Shown: positions 13,940-16,377 of the stretch, piece after piece
Layout: each line of letters begins with the position of its first letter
How positions within the stretch are numbered: position 1 is the stretch's first letter
DNA from: Escherichia coli
GTDB lineage: Bacteria; Pseudomonadota; Gammaproteobacteria; Enterobacterales; Enterobacteriaceae
Assembly (NCBI RefSeq): GCF_030384885.1
Contig: NZ_CP128613.1
Length of the DNA: 64,000 nucleotides
Direction: 5' to 3' (one strand)
The notes under the pieces: generated by a model
The model's input: only the letters and a program-made list of their open reading frames with translations
Database searches by the model: none
Told to the model about the DNA's origin: nothing
Position numbers and translations under genes: made by a program

Positions 13940-16060
13940 TTGTACCTGCAACATTAATGAATGGGAAGAGTCACCTTATATTGTAAATTATTCCAAAATT
14001 TTTCCGCATCTTGAGGCTGAGGAATATACCTCTGAATTCTTGTTTGATCGGTCTCCGCAAAACATGAAAGTAATGTAACCTCAAGACTTCTATCATTAAT
14101 ATAAGCAAAGATCATTTTTGCAAATTCGTAAATAAATGCCCGATCCTGAGCGCTTAATAGCTTAATACAATATTTATTCTTTAGAGAGTAAAGGATTTCA
14201 ATGAAAGCATCCGCTGCAACCTTTACGTTATTCCCAACGGTCATATTAAATATATCCCTTACACAGATAGAGTACAGTGATAGTAAACAACCATACAAAT
14301 AATCATTTATTAATTCTTTTGTCCATTTTACTGGTAACCATGGTTTTATCTTGACATCATGCATACTACACTCATGAAAAAGACATTTATAGAGATTAAC
14401 TCTTATCATATCAACACTGTAAAAATGGCAATGGACAAATTTTGAAGAATGAGCATTTACATTATTAATTTTAGTCGCTCTAAACGTAAAGTTACTGAAT
14501 ACGTTTTTCGTTAAATTACTATTTGTTATCTTAACATCACCTAAACTGCCGTTCTCAAAACAACATCCCTTCAATATACTTTCATTTACAAGAGAATGTG
14601 ATAAATACAGATGATTTAAGTTTTTCTTCATTAAACCCACAGCATCAAAATGACTATATTTAATAAAACAACCATCATTGAGTAGCGTTTTTAGATTGAC
14701 TAAATTACTATCATGTTCACGTGCCATAGTTGTGATAGGGGTTGGAAGAGACATGAAAACCTCTTCATTGACCATCAAGTGAATCATGCATTGCTTGCCT
14801 TTTGTCATATCCACACTTACACTACAAATATCGTTGTAATGCGATGAATACATTTCCGGACACAGATTCAATACAATATTTTGAAAGGAGTAAAATCGTG
14901 TTAATACTTCCGAATAAGTAATTGGATTAAACTTAAGATCGTCATTAGCAAAACCAAGTGTTATTGTATGTTCTACATTTAGGTCAGGTTCAGGTGAGTC
15001 TTCAAGAGCAATATCATCACTGAAAATTTCACCTGATGTATTATCACTGTTACAAAAGGTGCTCATCAATGCAATGGTATTTATAACGGACTCTTTGTCG
15101 ATATCCTCACTCATTGTATATCGCCTGCTATAATCATAGAAATGAATAAATGCGTCTTTTATAATTGTTATATATTGTTCCTTATTAAATACAATTCGAT
15201 TGTATACTTTTTCAAAGATCGCATTCGCAATCTTACAACCAAGGGTATACCTATATAACAATGGATAAGAATCAATAGTAAAATTCTTCTCCAATTCACA
15301 TTGCAGTTTATTTTCGTAATGCAGAGGAAAAAGAAATTCTTGTCTTTCCATTTTTCCGCTGACTTTATTTCGCACCCCAATGGTGATTCTTTCATTGCCA
15401 ATTTTTATTTCAACTTCATTGTTTTGTGATGTACCAAGGTATGTTTTAGTACCAGTTTCGAAAGCACTACTAAAAAAAGAATTAAAATAATTATTTGCTG
15501 AATAAATAATGTTACCGAGCGACATATCATTTTTAATAGTTTCACTATCAGCATTTATTGCTAATACTAGATTCAAGTAGATGGTGTCCCATGTAGATAA
15601 CTCATCCTTATGACTGGATTTTAATATGGTAAAAAATTCCCTCAGCGAGGCCATGAGATTATCACTTTGATTCGGTTGTGTGCTTAGAAATGATGACGAT
15701 TGTTCAGAGACATTATTTATCATATAAAAATCACCCAAAAAAAACGATAACCCACTGTACTCCCTGTGCTTTATAAACATAAAGTCACAACACATTCTAT
15801 ATTCATATTAATTAATGGCGCATTAAAAAAAATTATATTATTCTTAACTCAAATCCATTAGCTAAATAAGATTATATTCTTCACTCACAACCGTAACAAT
15901 AATAATATTATCGAAAGTTAAAGTTGGGACTATCAAATTTCGCTCATTTCAAACATACATTGTGATTTTTGCAATCATCTTAATCTTAGGGCCTATCATC
16001 ATATGTTAAAATTTTGTCAATCATAGAAAAGAATCTTGGTCACCTATCATGCGTTATAAA
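13940..16060. other. AT-rich inserted islet between ybjQ and ybjP, boundaries approximate; single gene cargo, no integrase or transposase
   Basis: ybjQ-ybjP spacing here is ~2.63 kb against ~0.27 kb recalled for K-12; base composition shifts abruptly to AT-rich. Confidence 0.6.
13954..15795 (-). CDS. Hypothetical pentapeptide-repeat protein, candidate secreted effector-like protein; longest frame 613 aa, more likely start at 15723 giving 589 aa beginning MINNVSEQSSSF
   Basis: Long uninterrupted AT-rich ORF; residues ~378-487 show strict 5-residue periodicity with a hydrophobic residue (F/L/I/M) at every fifth position; Ser/Asn/Gln-rich N-terminus; weak GGTGA RBS before the internal ATG. Confidence 0.75.
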   Translation of the reverse strand: MCCDFMFIKHREYSGLSFFLGDFYMINNVSEQSSSFLSTQPNQSDNLMASLREFFTILKSSHKDELSTWDTIYLNLVLAINADSETIKNDMSLGNIIYSANNYFNSFFSSAFETGTKTYLGTSQNNEVEIKIGNERITIGVRNKVSGKMERQEFLFPLHYENKLQCELEKNFTIDSYPLLYRYTLGCKIANAIFEKVYNRIVFNKEQYITIIKDAFIHFYDYSRRYTMSEDIDKESVINTIALMSTFCNSDNTSGEIFSDDIALEDSPEPDLNVEHTITLGFANDDLKFNPITYSEVLTRFYSFQNIVLNLCPEMYSSHYNDICSVSVDMTKGKQCMIHLMVNEEVFMSLPTPITTMAREHDSNLVNLKTLLNDGCFIKYSHFDAVGLMKKNLNHLYLSHSLVNESILKGCCFENGSLGDVKITNSNLTKNVFSNFTFRATKINNVNAHSSKFVHCHFYSVDMIRVNLYKCLFHECSMHDVKIKPWLPVKWTKELINDYLYGCLLSLYSICVRDIFNMTVGNNVKVAADAFIEILYSLKNKYCIKLLSAQDRAFIYEFAKMIFAYINDRSLEVTLLSCFAETDQTRIQRYIPQPQDAEKFWNNLQYKVTLPIH

Positions 16061-16377
16061 TGTGCAACTGGCTTCCTGCAGATGCTCTTAACTTCTACAG
16101 CAGGATTTATACCAGCGTTTCAGAACTATCATATTTACCTTAAATGATCATTTCAGTCTTATAACACGCTCAGCCTCACAAATGGTTTACACTGTCTATT
16201 GTTTGGGTAATTTAAGTAAGTCAGCTACGATCAACCTTGAATGGGGAGCCAGCAATGGACTTAAGCCTAATCGGGTCTTCAGATTGTTTCAGAATTGTAT
16301 AAAAAACAATGTATTAAATAATCTGATTGTTTTTGGTCATAGTGTGACGCAGAAAGCAAGCCAATAAGGAAATGATT

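Follow-up and report, generated by a model that had tools for sequence, protein, structure and literature searches.

What does the AT-rich DNA upstream of the acquired gene espX2 do in Escherichia coli, and from where is ybjP, the gene on its other side, transcribed in strains that carry it? The question was raised by a 64,000-nucleotide stretch of E. coli contig NZ_CP128613.1 (the window), in which roughly 580 bp at 15796–16377 had been described in an earlier note as a non-coding leader upstream of an islet gene, lying back-to-back with the ybjP promoter region. We consider that this segment is probably an ordinary AT-rich non-coding control region between espX2 and ybjP, a bidirectional promoter spacer within a known islet.

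Positions 15700–16450 match the E. coli 2013C-4282 chromosome at 100% identity; the annotated gene order there is ybjS, amiD, ybjQ, a "frameshifted" pentapeptide-repeat gene, ybjP, and artPIQMJ. The O157:H7 locus has the same arrangement between ybjQ and ybjP, and positions 13300–17000 aligned with it in a single colinear BLAST alignment with the same junctions. Because the O157 gene at this locus is espX2 in the literature (ECs0876 in Sakai, Z1019 in EDL933; a candidate type III effector encoded outside the locus of enterocyte effacement, in S-loop 57, and missing from K-12), the islet gene was assigned as an espX2 allele and the segment as the espX2–ybjP spacer. Database matches to the espX2 product are named pentapeptide repeat-containing proteins, one of them a putative type III effector, and matches of the window allele to Pfam PF13599 and PF00805 were weak (i-Evalue 0.0016 to 0.15). 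The locus is already known as S-loop 57, or the espX2 islet, and the window holds a rare, strongly diverged allele of it. With S-loop 57 of O157:H7 Sakai it shares the site between ybjQ and ybjP, the gene order and the junctions, and the two spacers align end to end. The two differ in that O157 espX2 is annotated as a C-terminally truncated pseudogene, whereas the window gene is full length except for a homopolymer frameshift near its start; also, the O157 spacer is 84.5% identical overall to that of the window, and only 66–85% identical in its left half. Nothing here is categorically new, and the spacer resembles many AT-rich upstream regions of acquired genes; what is added are the precise junctions, the loss of the presumed ancestral promoter core of ybjP, a two-module genealogy, a corrected espX2 start with its homopolymer frameshift, and an islet-linked ybjP allele.

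For the junctions and the polarity of the insertion, the locus was compared across 80 species representatives and 5426 complete E. coli genomes. The divergent ybjQ–ybjP spacer measures 125 bp in K-12, E. albertii and another Escherichia species, 126–127 bp in Salmonella and several Citrobacter genomes, and 97–289 bp in most other genera. At this locus, none of the 80 representatives, which included E. albertii, Salmonella, Citrobacter and Enterobacter, showed any trace of espX2 or its leader. Among the complete E. coli genomes, 4295 (79%) have an uninterrupted spacer and 1128 (21%) have the islet. Since the short spacer is widespread across genera as well as in those 4295 genomes, it is the ancestral state, and the islet is an insertion or a replacement. 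The view that the segment lies upstream of a gene acquired by horizontal transfer was thereby borne out, the islet being absent from related genera and from most complete E. coli genomes.

Alignment to insert-free genomes, which the earlier note had proposed as a check, fixed the right junction. On the left, homology to such genomes breaks off at 13804/13807; on the right, it is regained at 16350 (HS-02) or 16364 (K-12), so that a ~2.5-kb islet stands in place of the central ~50 bp of the 125-bp ancestral spacer, and the segment as a whole is not conserved native ybjP upstream sequence. The suggestion that part of it may be native applies to the last 14–28 bp at most; the rest is islet DNA. 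The description of the segment as back-to-back with the ybjP promoter region had to be abandoned, as ancestral ybjP upstream homology begins only at 16350 or 16364 and the ancestral promoter core is missing. That core, ATTGAAAGGATAT...CGTAGAAC, is kept from Escherichia to Salmonella and Citrobacter and is not present in the window; it can be read as TTGAAA-17-TAGAAC, the putative ybjP promoter. The junctions of the known O157-type islet are now fixed, and essentially the whole spacer is acquired DNA. With the islet sitting exactly on the conserved core, 21% of complete E. coli would have to express ybjP from control DNA unlike that of K-12.

Two possible survivals of ancestral elements were tried and rejected. 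A copy of the ancestral −10 (TCGTAG..ACGC) at ~16336, which would extend the native homology, did not align significantly (P = 0.12–0.70), nor was there significant support for a −35 or a duplicate ybjP ribosome-binding site (AGGAAATCAT, 13830–13839) at the left junction; over both junctions, P ranged from 0.08 to 0.7. HS-02 was rejected as an insert-free reference because of a unique ~260-bp, almost pure A/T stretch in its spacer, which occurs in 1 of the 5426 genomes and is probably an artefact. This stretch (L002 2683–2940) is almost entirely A and T, includes some G but lacks C, and adjoins the native promoter core and an islet-type ybjP allele.

The extent of the spacer itself also required correction. 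The segment is non-coding as claimed; its left coordinate did not hold, and the spacer is longer, running from 15756 (or 15724) to 16377. It measures 622–654 bp because espX2 starts at GTG 15755 or ATG 15723 and not at 15795, where an ATG merely begins the longest open frame. The statement that the segment holds no convincing open reading frame (ORF) was confirmed; the only ORFs of at least 30 aa in 15796–16377 are on the plus strand, at 15766..15861 (31 aa), 16049..16147 (32 aa) and 16182..16367 (61 aa, the largest). The described AT-richness is likewise real, with a GC content of 32.3% over 15796–16377 versus 50.4% for the whole window, and 27.8% over the islet-proximal 15724–16050. Just 2.3% of all 582-bp windows are as AT-rich, every one of them starting within the islet at 13920–15799. 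A/T tracts are present as described, with A8 runs at 15737 and 15825. Coordinates of the features are collected in Table 1.

Table 1. Features of the espX2 islet, the espX2–ybjP spacer and ybjP, in window coordinates
Feature	Position	Strand	Basis or remark
espX2 islet, homologue of O157 Sakai S-loop 57	13805..16349	none	BLAST junctions and genome counts
espX2 allele, pentapeptide-repeat protein	13954..15755	-	"Frameshifted" in the Prokaryotic Genome Annotation Pipeline (PGAP); homologues 589 or 599/600 aa
Coding-strand T8 homopolymer separating GTG 15755 from ATG 15723	15737..15744	-	Alignments; likely frameshift site
espX2-proximal (left) module, 28% GC, hypervariable	15756..16050	-	Presumed site of the espX2 promoter and 5' untranslated region (UTR)
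Shine-Dalgarno-like hexamer, AGGGAG here and GAGGAG in the common allele; 4-5 nt before GTG 15755	15760..15765	-	Read from the sequences
Promoter-like TTGTTA-17-TATAAT, 10/12	15871..15899	-	Window allele class only
Promoter-like TTGATA-18-GATAAT, 10/12	15907..15936	-	Consensus match; predicted transcription start site ~15900
ybjP-proximal (right) module, 37% GC, conserved, islet DNA	16051..16349	+	ybjP transcription presumably starts here
Promoter-like CTGAAA-17-TATGAT, 9/12	16128..16156	-	Inside the invariant 39-nt stretch 16118-16156
Orphan 61-codon frame, gene status doubtful	16182..16367	+	Stop 10 nt before the ybjP ATG
Promoter-like TTGTAT-16-AATAAT, 8/12	16295..16322	+	Best plus-strand site kept in both allele classes
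Ancestral spacer remnant with ybjP ribosome-binding region AATAAGGAAATGATT	16350..16377	+	Alignment to insert-free genomes
ybjP, islet-linked allele	16378..16893	+	5' half (to ~16660) 73-82% identical to K-12, 3' half 93-100%

Comparison of islet-bearing genomes revealed two deeply diverged allele classes, the window class in ~18 complete genomes (at least 99% identity) and the common class in ~1109. The classes share 83% DNA identity across the ybjQ–ybjP interval, and their proteins are 72–73% identical. Identity between them is not uniform along the spacer; it is 66–85% over 15724–16100 and 90–94% over 16101–16349, with divergence shifting sharply at ~16050 from 16–37% on the left to 6–10% on the right. 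Within-class nucleotide diversity (π) falls in the same direction, from 0.08–0.11 over 15724–15900 to 0.03 over 15901–16050 and 0–0.017 over 16051–16349. Several stretches of 30–40 nt are invariant across all alleles examined, including 16118–16156 (39 nt) and 16179–16217. Synonymous divergence (dS) is 0.59 for espX2 and 0.13–0.30 for the flanking genes of the same genome pair. This contrast, together with the pattern of divergence along the spacer, indicates that the left module shares the old espX2 genealogy and the right module the younger genealogy of ybjP. The right module, which is absent from all insert-free genomes compared, changes about half as fast as synonymous sites in the flanks.

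As for the left module, it would carry the espX2 promoter, most likely the TTGATA-18-GATAAT site at 15936–15907, of which both hexamers are unchanged in 8 of 8 aligned haplotypes while the surroundings vary. By comparison, the neighbouring site at 15899–15871 has an altered −35 in O157-type alleles and has lost its −10 to a 9-bp deletion in others. Transcription from the conserved site would plausibly give espX2 a 5' UTR of ~145–180 nt (~145 nt to GTG 15755), which would end in a good Shine-Dalgarno sequence and the GTG; the left module as a whole is inherited together with espX2. The earlier note had allowed for a long 5' UTR or a small RNA (sRNA) here; the former is plausible from this consensus-matched promoter-like site, and the latter found no support.

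The start of espX2 was examined by alignment to intact homologues, which begin either at the ATG equivalent to 15723 (589 aa) or at a GTG 10–11 codons upstream (599/600 aa). Both the Shine-Dalgarno sequence and the GTG 15755 start are conserved between alleles. In this strain, the T8 run at 15737–15744 places GTG 15755 out of frame, whence the "frameshifted" call by PGAP, and ATG 15723 opens a 589-aa frame; the closest relative (L005) has T6 here, and L010 again has T8. The short frame from GTG 15755 ends at a TGA that overlaps ATG 15723 (ATGA). The secretion signal of type III effectors is N-terminal, and a corrected start, with Shine-Dalgarno sequence and GTG 15755 but frameshifted here, matters for such a protein; the T8 run may be prone to slippage and so act as a switch for the N-terminus of the effector. 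Annotations of many lineages, O157:H7 and O55:H7 among them, list espX2 as a pseudogene, the lesion being an internal stop, a frameshift or loss of the C-terminus (loci L003, L007–L009, L092 and L094–L097). Between allele classes its nonsynonymous divergence (dN) is 0.146, which at a dS of 0.59 corresponds to a dN/dS of 0.25 over the history of the classes.

By composition, the left module resembles DNA typically coated by H-NS and would be a likely H-NS target; H-NS binding of the spacer is plausible on this ground. With promoters under xenogeneic silencing by H-NS in Enterobacteriaceae, the spacer shares a GC content of 28–32% in a 50% GC region, A/T runs and a position upstream of a laterally acquired effector-family gene. 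It differs in that the consensus nucleation motif occurs at chance frequency. For the published high-affinity motif TCGATAAATT, a single 8/10 match was found in the spacer (15905–15914, minus strand, two mismatches), which is the chance level, and window-wide there were 90 such matches versus 70 ± 9 expected. The literature found on espX2 contained no report of regulation by H-NS or Ler.

With regard to ybjP, the right module appears to be older resident islet DNA, with a genealogy as shallow as that of the ybjP allele linked to it. The conserved core of the ancestral spacer, which we read as TTGAAA-17-TAGAAC, was either removed or displaced by the islet, and ybjP transcription in islet-bearing strains would start in the right module or in a hybrid of that module with the ~28-bp native remnant. 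The right module should have to supply the promoter: genomes with the islet lack the ancestral core, yet ybjP is intact in every one of them that was examined and evolves under strong purifying selection (dN 0.005, dS 0.147). As a replacement promoter, the plus-strand site at 16295..16322 is a weak candidate. Work on K-12 reports that ybjP depends on rpoS and that its product is a lipoprotein partner of TolC (bioRxiv 10.1101/2025.03.19.644130).

A number of points weigh against a bidirectional control region built in this way. All promoter assignments are consensus matches, promoter-like sites were not enriched over shuffled sequences (20 found vs 14.6 ± 4.1), and no plus-strand site in 16051–16377 reached the 9/12 threshold of the scanner. 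The putative espX2 5' UTR gave a weak consensus fold (−18.8 kcal/mol, one compensatory pair), and the H-NS high-affinity motif was without local enrichment in the spacer. Because espX2 is a pseudogene in many genomes, the module upstream of it may be decaying rather than functional, and the right module may have diverged less on account of its genealogy and of its linkage to ybjP, not of function.

The last of these points can be extended to the spacer as a whole, which might have no specific function beyond a promoter somewhere, being leftover AT-rich DNA of the acquisition whose right module is conserved solely through the linked, younger ybjP genealogy. Divergence of the right module between classes (6–10%) does exceed the total divergence of ybjP (3.5%) while staying below the dS of that gene (0.147) in the same genome pair, and the linkage is tight, with the islet-bearing haplotype extending into the 5' half of ybjP. 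Recombination has occurred inside the spacer: L010 is a recombinant with a breakpoint near 16231, and in E. coli CUWW06 (L011 3253–3950) an IS1 stands in place of espX2 and the left half of the spacer, with the equivalent of 16040–16349 kept beside an annotated, intact ybjP. The frequent decay of espX2 fits this explanation as well. It accounts less readily for the 30–40-nt stretches that are invariant across all alleles, and the intactness of ybjP under selection without its ancestral core argues that some promoter must exist in the right module. We regard so passive a spacer as unlikely and prefer the bidirectional control region.

A stronger claim would be that the right module is a functional replacement control region that rewires ybjP, possibly with the 61-codon frame translated, and that it forms one co-adapted haplotype with the diverged 5' half of ybjP. 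All genomes with the islet have a ybjP of the same allele class, 96.5–99% identical among themselves and ~86–87% identical to K-12, and the divergence from K-12 is concentrated in the first ~280 bp; amiD, ybjQ, artP and artI have no such split, and artP and the 3' half of ybjP are 93–100% identical to K-12. The signal peptide reads MRYRSLSLL in the islet-linked form, compared with MRYSKL in all aligned insert-free Escherichia, Citrobacter and Salmonella except HS-02, which has the islet-linked ybjP form without the islet. As the diverged 5' half of ybjP is shared by islet-bearing genomes, the haplotype that distinguishes the islet reaches into ybjP. That 5' half differs by ~20% from K-12, and conclusions drawn on K-12 ybjP may not transfer to enterohaemorrhagic E. 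coli or other islet-bearing lineages. Taken as a whole, such a rewired control region with a co-adapted ybjP is rated as rather improbable; it would concern all islet-bearing genomes, O157:H7 included.

Coding capacity in the right module was considered separately, since the 61-codon frame could be a real small gene, upstream of ybjP and co-transcribed with it. The frame is open in both allele classes, it is the sole long open frame in a stretch of 37% GC in which the other five frames hold 6–12 stops, and some genome annotations call it a hypothetical protein. Between the window and O157 alleles there are 9 synonymous and 7 nonsynonymous differences (dS 0.29, dN 0.043); a permutation that preserved the mutation spectrum gave P(Sd≥9) = 0.003, a coding-like pattern, with a stop gained in 47% of permuted alleles, although this between-class test rests on 16 substitutions only. 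Polymorphism within the common class, taken from 51 metagenomic copies collected by a degenerate pattern, was that expected under neutrality, with 3 synonymous, 10 nonsynonymous and 2 nonsense changes, the nonsense alleles being K13* in 9 loci and Q37*. No Shine-Dalgarno sequence precedes ATG 16182, and the 30 open codons upstream of the frame have no codon-position bias. A search of 5.8 billion proteins with the 61-aa product returned five E. coli/Shigella hypothetical proteins only, and no NCBIfam model matched it. Because of the neutral polymorphism within the class, the missing Shine-Dalgarno sequence and the lack of homologues, a functional small protein is rated as very doubtful. A relic of a larger gene was also rejected, a search with the 91-codon open frame having matched E. 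coli/Shigella hypothetical proteins only.

There is equally little to recommend a regulatory RNA, be it an sRNA from the right module or a ~400-nt structured espX2 leader starting from the minus-strand CTGAAA-17-TATGAT site at 16156–16128: although that 9/12 promoter-like site lies in an invariant 39-nt stretch and the right module is conserved beyond the synonymous sites of the flanking genes, Rfam searches at permissive thresholds over 5 kb and 771 bp returned only noise (best E-value 0.67, 12 bits versus a gathering score of 60), neither strand of the spacer showed a terminator-like site such as an sRNA gene would call for, and the sole AT-rich hairpin followed by a U-run (16279–16335) is disrupted in the common allele. 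Fold z-scores against shuffled sequences were −1.25 (plus strand) and −0.01 (minus strand) for 16100–16380 and +0.25 for 15700–15870 (the putative espX2 5' UTR), and when that UTR was folded as an alignment, a single compensatory change was seen among 42 predicted pairs.

As to how the islet arrived, insertion of an element into a divergent promoter region can displace a promoter or form a hybrid one, as is known for insertion sequences (IS). The locus resembles such cases in that the islet, lying inside the 125-bp divergent spacer, removes the TTGAAA-17-TAGAAC core and leaves ybjP with the ribosome-binding region only. It differs in that the islet borders carry no IS, integrase, transfer RNA gene or terminal repeat, and in that the ybjP coding sequence itself is strongly different between islet-bearing and K-12-type genomes. 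The event has the look of an old replacement of one haplotype by another, not of a simple and recent insertion. Repeats at the islet borders or within it were limited to short chance-level matches, which point neither to an IS or att site nor to an iterated operator. Sensitive blastn of E. coli genomes found no paralogous copies of the spacer, the islet being single-copy and confined to the orthologous locus; blastn against plasmids and phages found no real mobile vehicle, three "plasmid" matches being to large records of 0.7–4.9 Mb.

The ybjQ–ybjP spacer appears to be a recurrent insertion spot. In several Citrobacter species it holds unrelated inserts of 1.1–3.2 kb (L018 2803–3447; L016 1495–2805; L017, L023 and L029); the insert of Citrobacter sp. 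FP75 includes a pentapeptide-repeat gene of the QnrB family, and that of C. gillenii a phytase of the AppA family.

Two minor observations were made on the far side of ybjP. Just downstream of the gene, a weak Rfam match to CRISPR-DR53 at 16923–16959 (minus strand; 25.9 bits versus a gathering score of 45) coincides with the GC-rich inverted repeat ccggcatttcgtgaggaatgccg, which looks like the ybjP terminator, not a CRISPR repeat. Upstream of artP, a promoter-like TTAACT-18-CATAAT was seen at 17018–17047 (plus strand); the TTAACT/CATAAT hexamer pair is listed, with an H-NS flag, as a constitutive RpoD promoter of artPIQM in a K-12 genomic SELEX (systematic evolution of ligands by exponential enrichment) study (PMC3946193).

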